DNA from: Alphaproteobacteria bacterium
GTDB taxonomy: Bacteria; Pseudomonadota; Alphaproteobacteria; UBA828
Length of the DNA stretch: 64,000 bases
Assembly (NCBI GenBank): GCA_965237415.1
Contig: CBDEFM010000002.1
Span: 1,792,001-1,856,000, forward strand
Reading direction: 5' to 3'
The translations under genes and the position numbers were made by a program. The notes beneath the pieces were generated by a model. That model searched no databases. It was not told the origin of the DNA and saw only the letters and a list, made by a program, of their open reading frames with translations. Below are positions 87 to 45,875 of the stretch, piece by piece (position 1 is the stretch's first letter; the number at the start of each line of letters is the position of its first letter).

Positions 87-440
87 TCCCGCCCCCAGCC
101 ACGGCCATGGCCGACGCTTGCTCCCGACCGTCACTCCGTGTTTCAGTCCGGCCGGACCAAGCCCGGAGTTCTCACCAATGTCACGGCCTGCGTCGCACCC
201 AGACGTTCGATCCGCCAGGAGTGAGCCGAAAAGCGTAGCGGTGTCTACGGTTGAGGTCCACGACGCCGCGGGCGGGCGTCTGGGCGCGACCCGAAGGGCG
301 GCGCTGTCCGGCCGACAGTGTGCGTCACGCCGCTTGCCCGATGTCCCGCATCGCGCTGCACGCCGTTCCTGCCCTGTCGGCCGGACAGCGCCGCGCAGAC
401 CATGACATTGGTGAGAATTCCGGGCTAAGGAGAGGGCGGT

Positions 441-6728: not shown

Positions 6729-7700
6729 ATGGAAGGGGTGACGTGGTTCGTCCTGGTGATCGACGCGACGCTCCGCGTGTCGACGCCGCTCATCCTCGCC
6801 GCCTTCGCCGGCATGTTTGCCGAGCGCTCGGGCGTGGTCGATATCGGCCTCGAAGGCAAGATGCTGGGCGGAGCCTTCGCCGCGGCGGCAGCGGCGTTCG
6901 CCACCGGCTCAGCCTGGATCGGCCTGCTCGCCGGCATCGGGGCCTCGGTCGCGCTCGCGATGGTCCATGCCTTCGCCTGCGTCACTCACCGGGGCGATCA
7001 GGTGGTCTCGGGCATGGCGCTCAACATCCTGGTGGCGGGGCTCGGGCCAGTGCTGTCGCTCGCCTGGTTCGGCCAGGGCGGGCATACGCCGATGGTGGCG
7101 GATGCCGCGCGCTTCCGCCCAATTCACTTCCCCTTCGCCGACCGGTTGAGCGACGTGCCGTTCCTCGCCCAGATCTATTCGGAAATCGCCAGCGGCCACA
7201 ATCTGATCGTCTATATCGCGCTCGGCATGGTCCCGCTCGCGGCGTGGTTCATCTACAAGACCCGCTTCGGGCTGAGGCTCCGCGCAGTCGGCGAGGCGCC
7301 GGAGGCTGTGGACACCGCCGGCATCTCGGTCGCCGGCATGCGCTACCGGGCGATGATCGTCTGCGGCATCCTGTGCGGTATCGCCGGCACGTCGCTCTCG
7401 ATCGCCCAGAACGCGCTCTTCGTGCGCGATATGAGCGCGGGCATGGGCTATCTCGCGCTCGCTGCGCTCATCTTCGGCAAATGGCGCCCGGTGCCGACCC
7501 TCTTCGCCTGCTTCCTCTTCGCCTTCGCCGACGCCGTGCAGGCGAGGCTGCAGGGCGTCGATGTCCCAGGCGTCGGCGTCATCCCGGTGCAGGCGATCCA
7601 GGCGCTCCCCTACCTGCTGACCGTGCTGCTGCTCGCGGGCTTCGTCGGCAAGGCGGTCCCGCCCAAGGCGAGCGGCGTTCCCTACGTGAAGGAGCGTTAG
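6729..7700 (+). CDS. ABC transporter permease (nucleoside type)
   Basis: ERSGVVDIGLEGKML, GLRLRAVGE, ALAALIFGKW; ATG at 6729. Confidence 0.9.
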   Translation: MEGVTWFVLVIDATLRVSTPLILAAFAGMFAERSGVVDIGLEGKMLGGAFAAAAAAFATGSAWIGLLAGIGASVALAMVHAFACVTHRGDQVVSGMALNILVAGLGPVLSLAWFGQGGHTPMVADAARFRPIHFPFADRLSDVPFLAQIYSEIASGHNLIVYIALGMVPLAAWFIYKTRFGLRLRAVGEAPEAVDTAGISVAGMRYRAMIVCGILCGIAGTSLSIAQNALFVRDMSAGMGYLALAALIFGKWRPVPTLFACFLFAFADAVQARLQGVDVPGVGVIPVQAIQALPYLLTVLLLAGFVGKAVPPKASGVPYVKER

Positions 7701-7755
7701 CCCGGATATCTCGCCGGGCTCACGGACTGCATCGGGCGGGCGAAGCATCAAATTA

Positions 7756-7794
7756 AGGCGGGATTCGGCGGGATTAAGTGGGATTAAGTGGGAT
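7756..7794. repeat. 10-bp-period tandem array (GGGATTCGGC GGGATTAAGT GGGATTAAGT GGGAT), copy 1
   Basis: 39 bp identical to 45468-45506; contains G3N7G3N7G3N7G3 at 7760-7792. Confidence 0.9.
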
Positions 7795-8014
7795 AAGTGG
7801 TATTCCGCGGGGACAACCGCCCGCCGTCCTCCATGACCACGGCGGGGACTGCGGGCGGCCGCATTCCCTGCCTTCGCCTGCCGCCGCCCCGTTCGCTCTT
7901 GCGCTGTATGGCACGGCAATTGCGCCGGCGGCACGCAGACCGCGGCCGCGGTGAGACATCCGGGCCGCACGATGAGACGGGCGCGCGTCTGCCTGGTCGC
8001 GGCGGAGGAGGAGC

Positions 8015-8060
8015 CCCCCGCCTCACCCTGGCCCGCTCCACTCCGCAGGGCAGAAGGGAG
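8015..8060. repeat. Degenerate REP-like palindromic repeat (CCTCACCC...GGAG type)
   Basis: Similar to the palindrome at 45130-45176. Confidence 0.55.
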
Positions 8061-8813
8061 GGTCGGTCGGCCAGAGTCGGCCTTCCACCTCCCGCCGTCT
8101 CAGCTCAGCATCCCGCGCCCCGTGCGCGTCCCACGCGTCCTGTGCACCGTCGCCGGCAGGCGACTCGGACGTGGGGTCCGGCGGGGTGACGTGGGAGTCA
8201 GCGGGAGAGGCGGCGGCCCACCCGAATGCCGCCGGCGGCGGGTCTGTGCCCCCAGGGAAGAGGTGCCCCTCCATGGCCCGGCGGACGGTCTCGACCCGTT
8301 CGGCATGCGTCATAGTGGCCGCGCGCGCGGCCGGCCCGGCGTGCGCGGCGGCGGCATCGGCCTTCGCCTGCTCGCGCTCGACGCGGAGCCTGTCGGCGGC
8401 TTCGATGCGGTAGAGCCCGAGCGCGAGGCGGGCGAGGTCCTCCGTCGATACCGGTTCCGCGCGCTTGCCGAGCTCGGCCATCGTAACCAGAGCCAGCGTT
8501 CGCAGGGTCTCGATCGCGATGAGGGCGCTAAGCCCCTCGGCGCGGGGGTCGCGCGTGCGCTCCCATTCCTCGGCAAAGCGATCGGTCTCGCGCTGCAGGC
8601 AGATCAGGCCGTCCATGCGCTCGGCCCAGCGGCCCTCGGCGGGTCGCGCACGCGCGCAGTGTCGATGACGGTCCAAAAGTGCGCCTATTCGCTGCATTCA
8701 GCACGTGAGTGCGGTGACGATGTAGCAGCTTGTTTGGCGGGTGGAAGCGTGCCTCGTCGGAGCTGTGGATAGGCGGCTTGTCGCAGCGACCGCCCTCGTC
8801 TATGGACGCCCCC

Positions 8814-9070
8814 GGTAATGCAAGCTTTTCTTTGAACGGCACGGTGCATGCGGTCAGGTGCTGTCGTCTATCCGGCCTGTTGATGCGGCATTTCGATCGC
8901 CGCTGGCCCGTATGGAGATACGCGAACCGGGTCCAAAATCGAGTCTGCGAGCTTGAACGCTCTCAGGACGGTGCTGGTTTTCCCGATCCGGTCTCATTGA
9001 CCGTATGCCCTCCTTACCTGTCCTCCGACCTGCCCACATCCCCGACGGCTTCCCGCGATTGTCCGCCCTG
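8814..9070 (-). ncRNA. Putative IS110 bridge/seek RNA (ends approximate)
   Basis: Non-coding 3' region holds segments matching both halves of the reconstructed target (8965-8972, 8939-8947) and of the donor junction (8912-8918, 8864-8871). Confidence 0.7.
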
Positions 9071-10096
9071 TCAGGCGGTTGCGGGAACCCGATAGATCTC
9101 CTTCTTCGCCGTCACCGCCCAGGCGACGCGCGCCATTTTGTTGGCCAGCGCAACCGCGACGAGCATCTTCGGCTTGCGCGCCAGCATTTCGGCCAGCCAA
9201 GGATCCCTCGTCTCGCCACCACGGCGCTCCGCCGCTTGGATTACAGACATGGCACCCGTGATCAAGAGCCGCCTGAGATCGCGCTGGCCCATCTTCGATA
9301 CCTTGCCAAGCCTTGGCTTGCCGCCAGTCGTATGCTGTCGCGGCACGAGGCCTAGCCAGGCGGCGAAGTCGCGCCCGCGCCTGAAGCTCTCCATCGGTGG
9401 GGCGAAAGCCTGTACTGCCATGGCCGTGATCGGCCCGATGCCCGGGATCGTCATGAGCCGTGCCGCCTCTTCGTCCTGGCGTGCGCAAACGCGGAGCTCC
9501 TTCTCCAAATCGTAGATCTTCGCATCGAGGTCTGAGACCTGACCGAGCAGTAGGTCACCCAGCTCGCGAACCGGCTCCGGTAGCCCCGAGCTCGGATCCA
9601 TGAGTGCCGCCTCCAGCCGCTTGACATGAGCTGGCCCCTGTGGAGCGATGACGCCGAACTCCGCCAGGTGACCCCGTAGCGCGTTAATCGTCTGCGTGCG
9701 CTGGCGCACCAGGAGGTCGCGTGTGCGGAACAGCATCCCTCGAGCCTGCTGCTCTTCCGTCTTCACGGCCACCAAGCTCATGGTGGGGCGCTGCGCGGCC
9801 TCGCAAGTCGCCTCCGCGTCCCTCGCGTCATTTTTCTGCCGTTTGACGAATGGCTTGACATATATCGGTGGGATTAGCTTGACCTCGTGTCCGAGCATCT
9901 CGGTCTCTCTACCCCAATAGTGAGCGCTCGCGCAGGCCTCCATCGCCACCACGCAGGGCGGTTGCGAGGCGAGGAAGTCGAGTAGCTTGCCCCGGCTCAG
10001 CTTCTTGCGGAACACAACGGACCCGTCTGCCCGCGCACCATGCAACTGAAAGCTGTGCTTCGCCAGATCGATCCCGATGATGCTAGCCTGATCCAT
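9071..10096 (-). CDS. IS110-family recombinase/transposase
   Basis: IGIDLAK (DEDD RuvC-like), MEAC, KNDARDAEA, IPGIGPITA, WLGLVPRQHTTGGK; ATG at 10096 with GGAGG upstream. Confidence 0.95.
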   Translation of the reverse strand: MDQASIIGIDLAKHSFQLHGARADGSVVFRKKLSRGKLLDFLASQPPCVVAMEACASAHYWGRETEMLGHEVKLIPPIYVKPFVKRQKNDARDAEATCEAAQRPTMSLVAVKTEEQQARGMLFRTRDLLVRQRTQTINALRGHLAEFGVIAPQGPAHVKRLEAALMDPSSGLPEPVRELGDLLLGQVSDLDAKIYDLEKELRVCARQDEEAARLMTIPGIGPITAMAVQAFAPPMESFRRGRDFAAWLGLVPRQHTTGGKPRLGKVSKMGQRDLRRLLITGAMSVIQAAERRGGETRDPWLAEMLARKPKMLVAVALANKMARVAWAVTAKKEIYRVPATA

Positions 10097-10441
10097 GGAG
10101 GCCTCCTCCCTCAGGTGGTTCGACACCACCACCTTGGCACGATTCGCTGCCGTCGGGAGGGGGCGTCCACTCCCTCGAGTCTGGCAAGGCAAGCCGGCTA
10201 TCCACAGCGGGCAGGCGTCGCGATTCCGGTGGCGGCGGGCGAACTGGCGGCAGCCCCTCGGACCTGAACAGCAAGATCGGTAGGGCTACACTCGGGCCGC
10301 TGAGAACGATGCGGCGCCGGCCACGTCTGCTTGGTGGCAAGAGCCGGCGCCGCACCCCCCGAGCCATGCTCGGCACGGCCCAGATGCACAGTATCGTGCG
10401 GGTTTTGGCGGGGGTCGAGCCCGTTCTCATCGACCGCCGCG

Positions 10442-10888
10442 ATGAGGAACTTCGGCCGCCTGTTCAACTGCGCCCACTGCGATCGGCAGGTGGTTCTCTG
10501 CCCGCGCTGCGACCACGGCAACATGTACTGCTCAGCGGACTGCCGCGAGACGGCGCGCAGGCAGGCGCAGCGTCTTTGCGGGCAGCGCTATCAGGACAGC
10601 CTCCAGGGTCGTCGCAAGCACGCGCAGCGGCAGCAGCGCTATCGCGATCGGCACCGGCGTCGGGTGCCGGAGAATGAGGTCTGCGCGCAGAAAGTGACGC
10701 ATCACCCTTTGACCCGCGGGCACCGTCGTCCTGTTGTGCCACAGACGCCGATGACGCGTCGCGGGACACAACCCTTTGGGCACGGGCGGCCTGCCAGGGT
10801 CTTCCGCTGCCATCGCTGCGGCCGGTTCTGCGCGCAGTTTGTCCATCCGGGCCTGCGCCCGGTCCGGCATCCGGCACGAGAAGGGTGA
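10442..10888 (+). CDS. IS21 passenger ORF, Cys-rich putative Zn-binding, Arg-rich protein
   Basis: CAHC, CPRC, YCSADC and terminal CHRCGRFC; stop 1 nt before the istA start. Confidence 0.65.
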   Translation: MRNFGRLFNCAHCDRQVVLCPRCDHGNMYCSADCRETARRQAQRLCGQRYQDSLQGRRKHAQRQQRYRDRHRRRVPENEVCAQKVTHHPLTRGHRRPVVPQTPMTRRGTQPFGHGRPARVFRCHRCGRFCAQFVHPGLRPVRHPAREG

Positions 10889-10889
10889 G

Positions 10890-12395
10890 ATGACCATCGA
10901 CAAGAAGACGCGCGCGGAGATCCTGCGCCTCCATTACGCCGAGAAGTGGAAGATCGGCACGATCGCAAACCAACTCGGCGTCCATCACATCACGGTCCGC
11001 CGCGTTCTGGCCGACGACGGGGTGCCTCGGCATATGAGGCGGCACCGGCGCTCGAAGCTCGATCCCTTCATGCCCTTCATCCGCCAGACACTGGCTCACT
11101 ATCCGAAGCTGACCGCCAGCCGGCTCTACGAGATGGCGTGCGAGCGCGGCTACCAGGGGAGCCAGAGCCACTTCCGCAACATGATCGCCCCCGAGCGGCC
11201 GAAGCCTGTGGCCGAGGCCTATCTGCGTCTCAAGACCCTTCCCGGCGAGCAGGCCCAGGTCGATTGGGGACACTTCGGCAAAGTGAAGCTCGGTCGCGCG
11301 GAGCGCCCGCTGATGGGCTTCGTGATGGTTCTGAGCTTCTCGCGACGCATCTTCCTGCGCTTCTACCTCAACGCCGCGATGAGCAACTTCCTGCGTGGCC
11401 ATATCGACGCCTTCGAGGCGTGGCAGGGCGTGCCCCGCGAGCTCTGGTACGACAACCTGAAGAGCGTCGTGCTGGAGCGCCGCGGCGACGCCATCCGCTT
11501 CAATCCCCAGTTCCTCGACTTCGCCGGCCACTACCGTTTCCTGGCACAGCCCGTCGCGATCGCGCGCGGCAATGAGAAGGGGCGCGTGGAACGGGCGATA
11601 CGCTACGCTCGCGACAGCTTCTTCGCCGCTCGCTCATGGCGCGATATCGACGACCTCAACGCCCAGGCCCAGGCCTGGTGCGATGGCATCGCCGCCGAGC
11701 GGCCCTGGCCCGAAGACCACTCCATCAGCGTGCGCGAGGCCTTCGAGCGGGAACGCAGCTCTCTCATTGCGCTGCCCGGCGATCGCTTCCCCGCCGACGA
11801 ACGGGTCGAGGCCTCCATCGGCAAGACCCCTTACGTCAGATTCGACCTCAACGACTACAGCGTGCCGCACACCCATGTGAGCCGCACTCTCGTCGTCCTC
11901 GCGACCCTCGACGAGGTGCGCATCCTCGACGGCGCGGACGTCATCGCCACCCATCCACGCAGCTTCGACAAGGCAGAGCGTGTCGAAAACCCCGACCACA
12001 TCGCCGGCCTGGTCAGGCACAAGCGTCATGCCCGGCGCCTTCGCGGGCAGGATCGGCTGGTCCAGGCCGCGCCCAACAGCGAGCGCCTGCTCACCGACGC
12101 CGCCAAGCGCGGCAGCAATCTCGGCACCATCGTCGCCGCCCTACTGCGCCTCCTCGACGGGTACGGCGCCGCCGAGCTCGAGGCGGGCATCGACGAGGCC
12201 CTGAAGCGCGGCGTCCCCCATCCGAACGCCGTGCGCCTGAGCCTGGCCCGGCGGCGCGAACTGCGAGACGAGCCCCCGCCCATCCCCGTCGACCTGCCCA
12301 AGCATCCACGCCTGCGCGATATCGCGGTGCGCGACCACGATCTCGGCGGATACGACGGACTGGCCGGTGGGCCCGAAGAGGACAGCGAAGAATGA
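10890..12395 (+). CDS. istA: IS21 transposase
   Basis: N-terminal [32 protein letters not shown]. Confidence 0.95.
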
Positions 12396-13201
12396 CCGAC
12401 ACCCTCAAGGACCGTGCCCGCGCGCTGCGCCTGTACGGCCTCATCGCCCACTGGGACGACATCGGCGAGTGCAGCTGGCTGCCCACCCTCATCGCCTGGG
12501 AAGAGGAAGAACGGCGAAGCCGCAGCCTCAAGCGGCGCCTCAGCGAGGCCCGCATTGGACACTTCAAGCCCCTCGTCGACTTCGATTGGGACTGGCCCCG
12601 CCGCTGCGACCCAATGGTCATCGAGGACCTCATGAGCCTCGAGTTCCTGCGCGAGGCCGCCAACGTCGTCCTCGTCGGCCCAAACGGGGTGGGCAAGTCC
12701 ACCATCGCCGCCAACCTCGCCCACCGCGCCATCATCGAGGGGCACACCGTGCGCTTCACAACTGCAGGAAACATGCTCGGTGAGCTCGCCGCCCTCGATA
12801 GCGACAGCCTGCTCCAGCGCAAGCTCCGATTCTACGCCCGCCAACAGCTGCTGGTGATCGACGAGGTCGGCTACCTCTCCTATAGCAATCGCCATGCCGA
12901 TCTGCTGTTCAATATCGTCTCCAGCCGCAGCCAGCAGCGCTCCACCATAATCACCACAAACCGGCCCTTCGCCGAGTGGAGCGAAGCCTTCCCCAACGCC
13001 GCCTGCGTCGTCGCCCTCGTCGACCGCCTCATCCACAACGCCGAGATCATCGCCATCGACGGCGATTCCTATCGCCGAAAGGAGGCCGAGGAACGCCAGA
13101 AGAAGCGCAGCGCAGAGCGCCGCCGCCGCCGGGGCGCAGCAGGCCGTCGGCGAGCCGGAAAGGCCGACGCCCTGGACCGCGAGCCGCCGTCGGCGGCGTA
13201 G
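12392..13201 (+). CDS. istB: IS21 helper ATPase
   Basis: Walker A GPNGVGKS, LLVIDEVGYL, TTNRPFAEW, DRLIH, GDSYR; ATGA overlap with istA. Confidence 0.95.
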   Translation: MTDTLKDRARALRLYGLIAHWDDIGECSWLPTLIAWEEEERRSRSLKRRLSEARIGHFKPLVDFDWDWPRRCDPMVIEDLMSLEFLREAANVVLVGPNGVGKSTIAANLAHRAIIEGHTVRFTTAGNMLGELAALDSDSLLQRKLRFYARQQLLVIDEVGYLSYSNRHADLLFNIVSSRSQQRSTIITTNRPFAEWSEAFPNAACVVALVDRLIHNAEIIAIDGDSYRRKEAEERQKKRSAERRRRRGAAGRRRAGKADALDREPPSAA

Positions 13202-13744
13202 TCATAGATCGTCTCTCGCCATGGTACGGGCGGGTGCAGGCCGAGACCCTGAGAGCCTATCCCCTCGAAGGCGTCGCGCGATCCCTCGGCTACCGCCGCG
13301 ACCCCGATGTCGATGACGCACCCTGGAGGCACCTCGGATTGATCGTCAGCATCAACCGCCGACCACGTCCAACTCCAGAAATGCAGCAAATACGCGCATT
13401 CCTAAGCCGTCGCTAACACGCGCAGCGTCGTGCGCGCGGGATCAAAGGCGAACGGTCGCCGCCCCGCGCACGGACGCGCGCCACGATCTCGTCCATGGTG
13501 GAGCCGTCCTCGATGGCTGCGGTCACGGCGTCCTGGATTGCGGCCGGCAGCGGCTCGTCCGATGAGCAGTCCCCGCCCATCGCACCTGCCGTGCCCGGCG
13601 TGCTCTCGCACTGCATGACGCGATCCTGGCGCGCGCGCCGAGCACCGTGCACCGCACCATGGTCCGTCGCCCGCGCCCGCAGGGTCGCGGGCGCGGTATC
13701 AGGGTCCCGTGCGACGCCGACCATGACCGCGAGAAAATTCCGGG

Positions 13745-14800
13745 CTAGAGGCGGAGGCGTTCTCGCGTGAGATGGATGAGGCGGGCGAGGCCGTGCGGCT
13801 CGACGATCAGGATCACGATGATGAAGCCGCCGAAGATAATGACCTCGAGATGCTTGGCGAGGTCGACGGGAAAGTCGATGCCGAGCATCGTGTTCAGGTT
13901 GGTGAGGAAGATCGGCACGACGGTGATGAAGGCCGCGCCGATGATGGAGCCCGCGATCGAGCCGAGGCCGCCGACGATGACCATGAAGAGCACGAGGAAG
14001 GAGAGGTTGACGTCGAAGGCGAGCGTCTCGGCGCTGCCCAGATAGAGGAAGACGAAGAGCGAGCCCGCGACGCCGCAGAGATAGGAGCTCACGGCGAAGG
14101 CGAGAAGCTTGGTGCGGAGCAGCGGGATACCCACGATCTCGGCGGCCACGTCCATGTCGCGCACCGCCATCCAGGCGCGGCCGAAGCGGCTGCGCATCAG
14201 GTTGCGGGCGAAGAAGACGAAGACCGCGACGAAGACCAGCGCCACCAGATAGCGCACCTCGGCGGCCGCCTCCGGCCCGGTGATCATGACGCCCGCGAAT
14301 TTGCGCGGCGGTGCCGTGATCGTGCCGGACGGGTTGTCGTTGTAGAACCAGGGCACCCGGTTGAAGAGCCAGATCAGGAAGAACTGCGCCGCGAGCGTCG
14401 CCACCGCCAGATAGAAGCCCTTGATGCGCAGGCTCGGCAGGCCGAACAGGATGCCGACGCCGGCGGCGAAGAAGCCCGAGATGAAGAAGATGGCGATGAT
14501 GTCGACCCCGGGCCACGCGGTCGTCATCTTGTAGGTGGCGTAGGCGCCGACCGCCATGAAGCCGCCGGTGCCGAGCGAGAGCTGGCCTGCGAAGCCGGTG
14601 AGCAGATTGAGCCCGAGCGCCGCGAGCGCGAATATCAGGAAGGGGATCAGGATCGCCTGCAGCCAGTACTCGTTCGCGAGCGTCGGCACCGCGAAGAGGG
14701 CGAGCAGCGTGATCACGGTCACGAAGACGGTATCGATCGAGCGCGAGCGGGTCGCGAAGAGGGCGTTGCAGAGGTCGGTGAAATAGGCGCGCACGGTCAC
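13745..14800 (-). CDS. Branched-chain amino acid-type ABC permease (LivM-like)
   Basis: LNLLTGFAGQLSLG, LRIKGFYLAVATLA, GRAWMAVRD; GTG start overlaps the upstream stop. Confidence 0.88.
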   Translation of the reverse strand: MTVRAYFTDLCNALFATRSRSIDTVFVTVITLLALFAVPTLANEYWLQAILIPFLIFALAALGLNLLTGFAGQLSLGTGGFMAVGAYATYKMTTAWPGVDIIAIFFISGFFAAGVGILFGLPSLRIKGFYLAVATLAAQFFLIWLFNRVPWFYNDNPSGTITAPPRKFAGVMITGPEAAAEVRYLVALVFVAVFVFFARNLMRSRFGRAWMAVRDMDVAAEIVGIPLLRTKLLAFAVSSYLCGVAGSLFVFLYLGSAETLAFDVNLSFLVLFMVIVGGLGSIAGSIIGAAFITVVPIFLTNLNTMLGIDFPVDLAKHLEVIIFGGFIIVILIVEPHGLARLIHLTRERLRL

Positions 14801-45176: not shown

Positions 45177-45307
45177 AGTAGGCTGCGGCCGTCCGCGTCT
45201 CCTCTCCGCCCTCCCGAGGCGAAGAAGGAGCGACGAGCATTTGCGGCGCGGTCCCCCCTCCGCACCTCAGCCGGGGCGAGGAAGCACGGGCGGGTGCAGT
45301 CTGCGTC

Positions 45308-45446
45308 CCCCCTCCGCCTTCCCGGGCCGTCGGGCCCGGACGGCGCGACTGCGCCGCGCGCCGAATGGCGCGTAGGCAAGCGAGCGGAGCTCGCGCCCGC
45401 CGTTGAGGGAAATGAACCAGTCGGGAGGGGGACAGGGGGAGGTGGG
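45308..45446. repeat. 139-bp direct repeat, copy 1
   Basis: 135/139 identical to 45737-45875. Confidence 0.95.
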
Positions 45447-45467
45447 ATGGCGTGGAAACCATTTCTT

Positions 45468-45506
45468 AGGCGGGATTCGGCGGGATTAAGTGGGATTAAG
45501 TGGGAT
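45468..45506. repeat. 10-bp-period GGGATTAAGT array, copy 2
   Basis: Identical to 7756-7794. Confidence 0.9.
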
Positions 45507-45538
45507 TCCGTGGGACGGACGGCCCAGGCGCAGGGTAC

Positions 45539-45696
45539 GACGGCGGCGCCGGATGCCGGGCCGATTGCGGGCAGGAGAGGCTCCACCGACGAGCGCCCGC
45601 TCATCCGCACTGCGGCTGCCGTGCCCCGCTCTCTCTCGCTCTCCATGGCGCGATCCTGACGCGGACGCCCCACCCTGTGCCCCGAACCATTGTCCG
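45539..45696 (-). pseudogene. Truncated paralog of the 5' end and leader of the gp27/DUF3486-like gene
   Basis: 45616-45696 is 63/81 identical (ungapped) to 13586-13666; peptide MSGRSSVEPLLPAI versus MGGDCSSDEPLPAAI. Confidence 0.7.
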
Positions 45697-45736
45697 GGGA
45701 GTCGGATCGGGAGTTGAAGCCGCCGCCGTCTACCTT

Positions 45737-45875
45737 CCCCCTCCGCCTTCCCGGGCCGTCAGGCCCGGACGGCGCGACTGCGCCGCGCGCCGAATGGCGC
45801 GTAGGCAAGCGAGCGGAGCTCGCGCCCGCCGTTGAGGGAAATGAACCAGTCGGCAGGGGGAAAGGGGAAGGTGGG
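45737..45875. repeat. 139-bp direct repeat, copy 2
   Basis: 135/139 identical to 45308-45446. Confidence 0.95.

Follow-up and report, generated by a model that had tools for sequence, protein, structure and literature searches.

Why should an orphan gene resembling gp27 of phage Mu be accompanied by a short array of direct repeats phased at about one turn of the DNA helix? The question arises within a stretch of 64,000 nucleotides (contig CBDEFM010000002.1, positions 1,792,001 to 1,856,000; hereafter the window, with C2 denoting its contig) from an uncultured alphaproteobacterium (G000), in which an earlier note, made from the sequence alone, had described such a gene and array at one locus and a gene-less counterpart at a second. 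We propose, with confidence that stands about midway, that the two loci belong to a family of dispersed copies and gene-less remnants of a small-terminase unit, derived from a domesticated Mu-type module resembling a gene transfer agent (GTA), and that the array is the putative binding site of the gp27-like protein itself. No part of phage DNA packaging is less well understood than the small terminases, and how they read a specific site is still disputed (PMC9611059). Supplements aside, nothing was found in the literature on multicopy gp27/DUF3486 genes accompanied by arrays.

A gp27-like gene split by an IS21-family element

The gp27-like gene of the window is split by an insertion sequence (IS) of the IS21 family, as a target duplication, an empty site in a related genome and insertion-free contigs all demonstrate. 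A 7-bp direct repeat, cgcgcag, flanks the insertion (8653-8659 and 13419-13425). Removal of the element together with one repeat copy joins positions 13616-13426 and 8659-8026 in frame (191 + 634 nt), which restores the minus-strand open reading frame (ORF) of 275 codons that had been proposed for this locus. In the closest genome, G004, whose flanks are 97-99% identical, the same gene is uninterrupted at the exact insertion site, and contigs from public sequencing runs join 8652 to 13419 with 7 ambiguous letters (two contigs in DNA run X1, one in RNA-library run X16). Several of the public runs in which the sequence occurs are labelled sponge metagenomes. Contigs of a further RNA library, X15, cover parts of the gene at about 92% identity and a depth of 2-4; paralogs or DNA carry-over could account for these, and they are not evidence of expression.

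The gene had also been described as ending inside a palindrome of repetitive extragenic palindromic (REP) type, followed about 230 bp later by the array. No inverted repeat of at least 10 nt overlaps the stop codon, the nearest imperfect ones lying at 7923-8004. The array is real, and its inner end (7808) lies about 215 bp from the stop codon (8023), but it sits within a separate 266-bp element (7700-7965; C2:1799700-1799965) that is bounded by inverted repeats, flanked by TA and adjoins the gene. Its units read, in order, GGGATTCGGC, GGGATTAAGT, GGGATTAAGT, GGGATAAGT and GGTATTCCGC, with a period of 10 or 9 bp. With up to 3 mismatches allowed, the 20-mer GGGATTAAGTGGGATTAAGT is found 5 times in the window and never in 100 shuffles. 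The summed contig depth of the array in X1 is about 35-fold that of its flanks, as expected of a repeat.

A family of arrays and leaders on both replicons

The likeness of the two window loci was borne out, the array being identical over 39 of 39 positions (7756-7794 and 45468-45506) and the start region and leader over 63 of 81 (13586-13666 and the second locus). The count of two loci was far too low. Arrays of GGGAT type, defined as three or more units at a 9-10-bp period, occupy 67 loci, which are distributed over either strand of both replicons. An AT-rich stretch of about 14 bases stands before every array, and 63 of the 67 have the end motif downstream within 6.5 kb. A leader model (nhmmer) yielded 78 matches in the genome; the linkage of leader and array extends genome-wide, with an array within 1.5 kb downstream of 67 of these matches.

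Most units measure 137-464 bp. About ten copies keep a gene and are longer (about 0.7 kb in gene family B and 1.2 kb in family A, described below), and some 57 are remnants of about 140-460 bp with leader and array only. When 55 copies are compared in pairs, identity averages 0.88-0.94 for the array and 0.58-0.92 for the final 50 nt of the leader, whereas the interior and the outside of the unit, at 0.29-0.45, are at the level of random DNA (0.28). These values support the earlier description of many copies whose ends are conserved and whose interiors are deleted to varying extents. The best pairwise matches of the short copies are only 67-78% identical, which indicates that these copies are mostly old.

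The neighbours of the second window locus are a purS-like and a purQ-like gene, both of which run in its direction. An element occupies this site in the same orientation in G000, G004, G009, G008, G020, G006, G011 and G017; G013 and G005 have a truncated form. The element is absent from G002, G003 and G018, whose sequences were read, and, as far as alignment gaps of about 3-30 bp alone can tell, from G007, G012, G015 and G016. The leader is followed by a junction that reads AGTCGG... in G000, G004, G020 and G006 and is close to this in G011 and G017 (AGTCTGAC...). Despite these like junctions, each lineage carries an array of its own type. Judged by this orthology across at least eight species, and by the divergence of the short copies, the family is genus-wide and mostly old. 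Array length is variable: the purS-purQ array of G009 (C7:514300-514950) has grown to roughly 30 units, and the G000 arrays at C2:1251462 and C2:2810630 contain runs of the 9-nt unit GGGATAAGT. A wider contig scan gave at least 10 loci, and those listed were all from metagenome-assembled genomes titled 'Alphaproteobacteria bacterium'.

Coding constraint was considered for the short copies: in 33 of 52, the frame opened by the leader ATG stays open as far as the end of the array, against 8 and 14 for the other frames. It was rejected, as the three possible phases between this ATG and the first TTAATCCC unit occur 20, 16 and 12 times (p = 0.37).

Another possible function is regulatory: the gp27-like protein could be a repurposed regulator of transcription or translation, the array its operator, a roadblock or a terminator (for instance a site of Rho loading), and the dispersed short copies would tune neighbouring operons. 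In gene direction the GGGATTAAGT array is C-rich and free of G (4 C and 0 G per unit) and is predicted to be unstructured (z 0.01 and 0.51). The purS-purQ copy lies inside an operon and is co-directed with it. Among 58 short copies, 42 point the same way as the upstream gene and 26 lie between convergent genes, although the gene calls behind these orientation counts are crude, being filtered by G+C content at third codon positions. The other array types do not keep this excess of C over G, however, having 3 C/2 G, 3 C/3 G or 2 C/3 G in each unit, and a Rho-loading tract was rejected on that ground. No Rfam family reaches its gathering score in the window, two short elements and one gene copy have no Rfam match at E up to 1, and the predicted RNA structure of leader and array does not exceed that of shuffles (z -1.43 to +0.51). 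The family assignment of the protein, too, points to packaging, and we regard a regulatory cassette as quite improbable.

Two families of gp27-like proteins

A search of the genome with the PF11985 profile (Phage_Mu_Gp27, DUF3486; Pfam gathering score 28 bits) gave 10 matches, 9 of them above the gathering score. The gp27-like genes fall into two families, A and B, that are about 48% identical to each other. Family A comprises six copies including that of the window, which restores to 275 aa; the five intact ones encode 235-303 aa, and their DNA is 82-86% identical to that of the window copy at four of the loci and 88% identical at the remaining one, where the match is shorter. Three intact family A paralogs score 40.3, 35.9 and 26.8 bits against PF11985 (E 5.8e-10 to 7.9e-6). 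The C-terminal fragment of the window gene, taken alone, reaches 21.9 bits and falls below the cut-off. Family B comprises four copies (one at C2:3851326), three of which are 92-93% identical in DNA, the fourth having been aligned only. Their scores are 83.6-86.1 bits (E 4.6e-24 to 2.8e-23), and a match to PHROG 426, 'terminase small subunit', has an E-value of 4.9e-28. The family B reading frame extends into the array itself (...WNPAESHLIPLNPGESR, which is the GGGATTAAGT units in reverse complement).

For the family B core, AlphaFold predicts (pLDDT 86.4) a helix-turn-helix, two helices of 60 and 34 residues and a C-terminal helix. This predicted layout is the one named for small terminases (TerS), with an N-terminal helix-turn-helix, a central helical oligomerisation domain and a C-terminal tail, but the model has no significant match to a solved TerS structure (Foldseek against the PDB, best E 1.3; 6v1i_A, E 3.5). 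A wide VIA fold search returned generic helical hairpins only, and in a search of viral structures (BFVD) the only matches were DUF3486 proteins (1.7e-4 and 2.3e-3).

Homologs in prophages and phages support a connection with packaging. In a G013 prophage, a gp27 homolog lies directly upstream of the large terminase gene (TerL). Of 16 gp27-bearing viral contigs, 9 have an ORF of 443-531 aa that begins immediately behind gp27; a YPYQ-type motif is visible in the 40 residues inspected for 7 of these 9 TerL-sized ORFs. The genes described here resemble Mu gp27 in family membership and in the predicted helix-turn-helix followed by a long helical hairpin; they differ from it in being orphan and multicopy (0-15 per genus genome), in having a leader of their own and in being followed by an array of short units. 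No TerL, portal or transposase gene lies beside any of the 10 copies in this genome, and none of them adjoins a phage-like locus. Of the 20 other genus genomes, 17 have PF11985 matches (1-15 each), against 1 of 20 genomes outside the genus.

At the sequence level, the family profile matches a single PDB entry, StbA of plasmid R388 (E 0.012, profile positions 23-67, in the N-terminal part). StbA binds direct-repeat arrays. The arrays could accordingly be centromere-like or nucleoid-organising sites bound by the gp27-like protein, by analogy with the direct-repeat arrays to which small helix-turn-helix or ribbon-helix-helix proteins bind in plasmid segregation, and be unrelated to packaging; direct repeats at one helical turn do adjoin the gene of a small helix-turn-helix protein. 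The StbA match is weak and short, though, no partner ATPase or other segregation gene occurs at any copy examined, and some 70 chromosomal sites of random spacing and orientation fit such a role poorly. The leader shared with phage structural genes, described below, also points elsewhere, and we consider a segregation or nucleoid function highly unlikely.

Array type varies with the presumed recognition helix

If the array is a binding site of the protein, the two should vary together. The strict GGGATTAAGT-type pattern occurs in 10 of 21 genus genomes including this one (57, 53, 31, 17, 10, 3, 3, 2, 1 and 1 matches) and in none of 20 genomes outside the genus. Other lineages carry other types: arrays of GAGAYAAGCC give 48 and 36 pattern matches in G020 and G019 and none in G000. 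Genes with the recognition helix CSRSAVGRY are followed by GGGAT-core arrays, those with CSRAAVGRY by GAGAYAAGCC arrays, and those with CSRSAVVRY or CSRSAVNRY by GGCCCAAAGT or GGCACAAACT arrays, all types having a period near 10 bp. Comparison of these genomes shows a lineage-specific pairing of gp27 subfamily with array type. Because of this covariation, the phasing at one helical turn and the conservation of the array in a decayed element, the best explanation of the array appears to be that it is the binding site of its own gp27-like protein.

The pairing stops at the boundary of the orphan genes. The prophage-type gp27 genes of G013, G002 and G031 have no such array, 16 of 16 gp27 genes on phage contigs are without a comparable one, and the array pattern gives no match in viral contigs. 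These observations indicate that the array is not a general feature of Mu-like packaging initiation (pac) sites and was not inherited as a known Mu-like pac site. The earlier suggestion of a DNA-binding protein paired with its own site gains support from the covariation. For the study of sequence recognition, these close genomes offer three ready-made pairs of matched protein and array, which differ by one or two residues in the presumed recognition helix.

The leader is shared with scattered phage-derived genes

Matches of the leader model that lack an array precede a Mu-type portal gene, the genes for head-maturation protease and major head protein, a cluster of tail genes (for major tail, tape-measure-like and minor tail proteins), and a phrog_1501 gene with a holin-like gene; a degenerate copy precedes TerL (C2:1226.5-1227.9 kb). 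Phage-derived genes (TerL, portal, protease, major head, tail and lysis-like) thus lie at 5 loci with a leader before each, and the shared leader ties the array family to these structural genes. When aligned, the leaders consist of CCGGACCATGGTGCGGTGCAC, about 20 nt, CAGGATCGCGCC and then ATG. A short ORF beginning at this ATG ends in a TGATG overlap with the start codons of the portal and protease genes, an arrangement that argues for use of the leader ATG.

Leader and short ORF are found upstream of the conserved portal gene (about 430 aa) in 10 of 10 other genus genomes fetched, from which we conclude that the leader is ancestral there and not an insertion. Among these ten are genomes without a GGGATTAAGT-pattern match, of which G003 and G018, whose sequences were read, still carry gp27 copies; G003 has diverged GGGAT-core arrays. 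Of the 20 other genus genomes, 18 retain Portal_Mu, as one conserved copy, and it is found in 0 of 20 outside the genus. By these comparisons the leader is the conserved upstream region of a scattered set of Mu-type head and tail genes, and is not private to the element.

This gene layout resembles that of a GTA. As in RcGTA and its relatives, phage-derived head, tail and lysis-like genes with open frames lie at several loci and share a regulatory element; leader sharing and genus distribution indicate that scattered structural genes have been kept vertically under common control. Unlike those systems, the head genes here are of Mu type, and the candidate small terminase keeps its helix-turn-helix, is multicopy and is paired with dispersed, specific-looking sites.

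Further features were noted around these genes. At least 330 bp comprising the leader and the protease start are duplicated at C2:24622 and C2:1133186 of G000, the two 330-nt stretches being identical; one duplicate heads the protease and major-head-protein genes and the other the tail cluster, which suggests that a rearrangement divided the structural cluster. An S24-peptidase (CI/LexA-like) repressor gene (G000:C2:1210261-1211229, minus strand) lies immediately upstream of the leader that heads the phrog_1501 and holin-like genes, and its product is a candidate for regulating the palindromic leader. A 450-aa ORF rich in GGxGxD-type repeats (G000:C2:1228074-1229426), RTX-like by eye, is situated between the TerL and portal genes.

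Dispersal and a TA-flanked inverted-repeat family

How did the copies come to be dispersed? Spread with REP clusters had been suggested, and REP-like hairpins do lie in or beside 31 of 65 copies. They are secondary, though, to a link with a family of MITEs (miniature transposable elements with inverted repeats) of about 265 bp, whose 26-nt terminal inverted repeats (TIRs), GCCCGCATTTCTCACCACGGTCACGG, are flanked by TA; it is mainly to this family that the connection with mobile DNA leads. The TIR motif has 158 fuzzy matches genome-wide, 118 of them preceded by TA, and 35 inverted pairs lie less than 700 bp apart, most with TA on both sides; of the pairs found, 18 are at 250-300 bp. Many MITE copies start exactly at the stop codon of a gene, presumably because TA is rare in a genome of 67% G+C.

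A left TIR stands about 69 nt before the array at 33 of 67 loci (control 1/400), an inverted right TIR follows the leader at 9 of 67, and both are present at 6 of 67. One complete element of 342 bp was read, with both TIRs, array and leader, and the window element at 7700-7965 likewise has TIRs at both ends, which is not the case for every copy of the family. A TIR scan found none on either side of the array at the second window locus. The dispersal of the array-leader family is thus only partly explained.

No autonomous partner of the MITE was found in this genome. Transposable elements of IS630/Tc1-mariner type prefer TA as target. A search for the MITE repeat near the 11 DDE_3 (IS630-type) genes gave one match only, with 3 mismatches and about 1.1 kb from one copy; four 379-aa IS630-type copies have ends that read TAGTCACCTGGCACTGAAGT... 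and not GCCCGCATTTCTCACC..., and no DDE_Tnp_4 gene was found in the genome. As with TA-targeting bacterial MITEs and with REP sequences and their mosaic elements (BIMEs), the members considered here are small, non-coding and intergenic, with 26-nt TIRs flanked by TA and mosaics of REP-like hairpins. They differ in that the conserved core is the array and leader rather than an inverted repeat, in the rarity of paired TIRs, in the gp27-like gene that some members carry, and in that the genome's 11 IS630-type transposase genes have different ends where examined.

These findings raise the possibility that the whole family is a selfish repeat, in which array and leader would be the cis-acting ends of a non-autonomous, MITE-like element moved in trans by a TA-targeting transposase or by some other mechanism, the gp27-like gene a decaying passenger, and the shared leader the outcome of insertions beside phage-derived genes. 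The fixed distance of the left TIR, the complete 342-bp example and the TA flanks speak for it, as do array copy numbers that vary patchily among species, from 57 to 0. So do three features of the family in this genome: dN/dS among the paralogs is 0.36-0.91, a sign of relaxed constraint; family A has, by alignment, an insertion that disrupts the presumed recognition helix; and the array loci on C2 are spaced no more evenly than at random (coefficient of variation 1.00; random 0.80-1.19). The ends of a true transposon would be the outer TIRs, however, and yet it is the inner array and leader that are best conserved, while neither a target duplication nor an inverted repeat was found where array and leader end in the four family B copies. 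An ancestral portal leader with its coupled short ORF, array types that track the gp27 subfamily, and the age of the short copies, at least one of them orthologous across species, are likewise difficult to reconcile with purely selfish spread, which we judge to be rather unlikely. On that explanation the repeat family would still be unusual, since its conserved core would be a phage regulatory leader and a putative protein-binding array, partly carried by a TA-targeting MITE and present at rearrangement junctions.

Proposed mechanism

In our preferred explanation, the dispersed small-terminase unit in its full form consists, in gene direction, of a leader (near-palindrome, about 20 nt, AGGA, ATG), the gp27-like gene and an array of 4-12 short units at a 9-10-bp period that ends in an AT-rich stretch. 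The leader may serve as a co-regulated promoter or operator together with a translation start. The protein, with its predicted N-terminal helix-turn-helix and long helical hairpin, would bind its own array with one helix-turn-helix per helical turn, on a single face of the DNA. Most speculatively, array-bound protein might recruit the large terminase, in which case the dispersed arrays would act as pac-like sites of packaging initiation for a GTA-like particle. Dispersal is explained in part only, about half of the copies having one terminal repeat of the TA-targeting MITE family and six having both.

We infer the pac-like role from an analogy with headful phages. In phages of pac type the site lies in or near the terS gene; the P22 pac lies inside gene 3, and that of SPP1 has several TerS contacts flanking the cut (PMC9611059). 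The present arrays resemble headful pac sites in lying in or just after a small-terminase-like gene, in offering several short contacts and in having an AT-rich stretch beside them. Repeated hexamers are found in the P1 pac, whereas the units here are of 9-10 bp and are repeated 4-12 times head to tail. A phage genome has one pac site, in contrast to the present candidate site, which is copied to about 70 chromosomal places.

Several observations weigh against this proposal. The pac role in particular is weakened by the array-less phage homologs, the random spacing of the arrays and the relaxed constraint on the paralogs, and a simple pac model does not require the leader to be retained in gene-less copies. 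The array of family A, and so that of the window copy, is part of a neighbouring TIR-bounded short element, and the presumed recognition helix of this family carries its insertion. The fold searches gave no significant match to solved small terminases, generic hairpins being all that the wider search returned, and the only PDB sequence matched is a plasmid segregation protein. Right TIRs are scarce and the MITE is without an autonomous partner. Finally, the co-occurrence of portal and gp27 is confounded by phylogeny, as the three gp27-less genomes have the lowest flank identity (82-88%).

Were the arrays packaging starts, the GTA-like system would target defined chromosomal sites instead of packaging at random, and the modelling of gene flow in these uncultured bacteria would change. 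A larger version of the proposal, which we put forward only tentatively and consider unlikely to hold in full, is that the genus has turned a Mu-type phage module into a GTA-like system whose small terminase recognises a dedicated short-repeat array. About 60-70 such arrays on both replicons, each with a promoter-leader belonging to the system, would be defined and co-induced starts of packaging, and co-evolution of protein and arrays would yield lineage-specific 'packaging codes' (GGGATTAAGT, GAGAYAAGCC and GGCCCAAAGT).

Layout of the window loci

The coordinates of the features in the window are collected in Table 1.

Table 1. Features of the two array loci and of a related element, in window coordinates
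Feature	Position	Strand	Basis or remark
Plain MITE member, 265 bp, without array	161..425		TIR pairing
TAG stop codon of left permease-like ORF	7698-7700	+	Supplies the TA target
Left TIR of MITE family (GCCCGGATATCTCGCCGGGCTCACGG), after the TAG stop	7698..7725	+	Fuzzy TIR match at 7700, preceded by TTA
AT-rich stretch (7742-7755), then array	7742..7808	+	Sequence reading; fuzzy 20-mer scan
Degenerate leader-like remnant and right (inverted) TIR	7895..7965	+	Paralog alignment; minus-strand TIR at 7965
C-terminal 211 codons and stop of gp27/PF11985-like gene, family A	8023..8659	-	PF11985, E 2.4e-4, 21.9 bits
IS21-family insertion	8660..13418	+	Pfam IstB_IS21 (3.5e-56), Mu-transpos_C_2/rve; direct repeat; empty site
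istA	10890-12395		Within the IS21-family insertion
istB	12392-13201		Within the IS21-family insertion
N-terminal 63 codons of gp27-like gene	13426..13616	-	ATG 13616-13614; BLASTN to paralogs, 79-89%
Leader of gp27-like gene	13617..13666	-	AGGAT (13627-13623) 7 nt before ATG; spacer of about 20 nt
Near-palindrome of the leader (CGGACCATGGTGCGGTGCAC)	13666-13647	-	
REP-like hairpin (13667-13700), then inverted TIR-like end (...GACCATGACCGCGAGAAAATTCCGGGC) and TA	13667..13747		
AT-rich stretch and array (GGGATTCGGC, two GGGATTAAGT, GGGATTCCGT, GGGACGGACG) of second locus	45458..45516	+	Sequence reading; alignment
Leader with ATG (45646-45644), short gene-start remnant and end motif (45677-45697) of second locus	45560..45697	-	

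On its right side, the first locus closes with a TIR-like end and TA that overlap the stop codon (13745-13747) of a minus-strand permease-like ORF; one extra base had kept this end from a substitution-only TIR match, and G004 has the same arrangement. Most other genomes, G003 and G018 among them, have these two permease operons at distant places, G003 even on different replicons, which indicates that the element sits at an old rearrangement junction.

In G004 the ortholog of the window element is itself split by two inverted copies of an IS256-type element, of which one interrupts the array and the other the 3′ part of the gene, and its halves (C1:5573300-5576400 and C1:2124200-2127300) are now 3.4 Mb apart, consistent with an IS-mediated inversion. 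Inside the IS21-family element of the window, an IS110-family transposase gene is nested on the minus strand (9071-10192; Pfam Transposase_20 and DEDD_Tnp_IS110), and a Cys-rich ORF of 185 aa (10331-10888), with weak zf-MYND/Ecl1-like matches, lies just upstream of istA. Around the second locus, a repeat of about 150 bp (…CCGAATGGCGCGTAGGCAAGCGAGCGGAGC…GTTGAGGGAAATGAA…) is present on both sides as direct copies (45290-45440 and 45735-45870); the same repeat lies beside family B copies (C2:2013.4 kb and C2:3852.0 kb) and occurs in many copies in most genomes of the genus.

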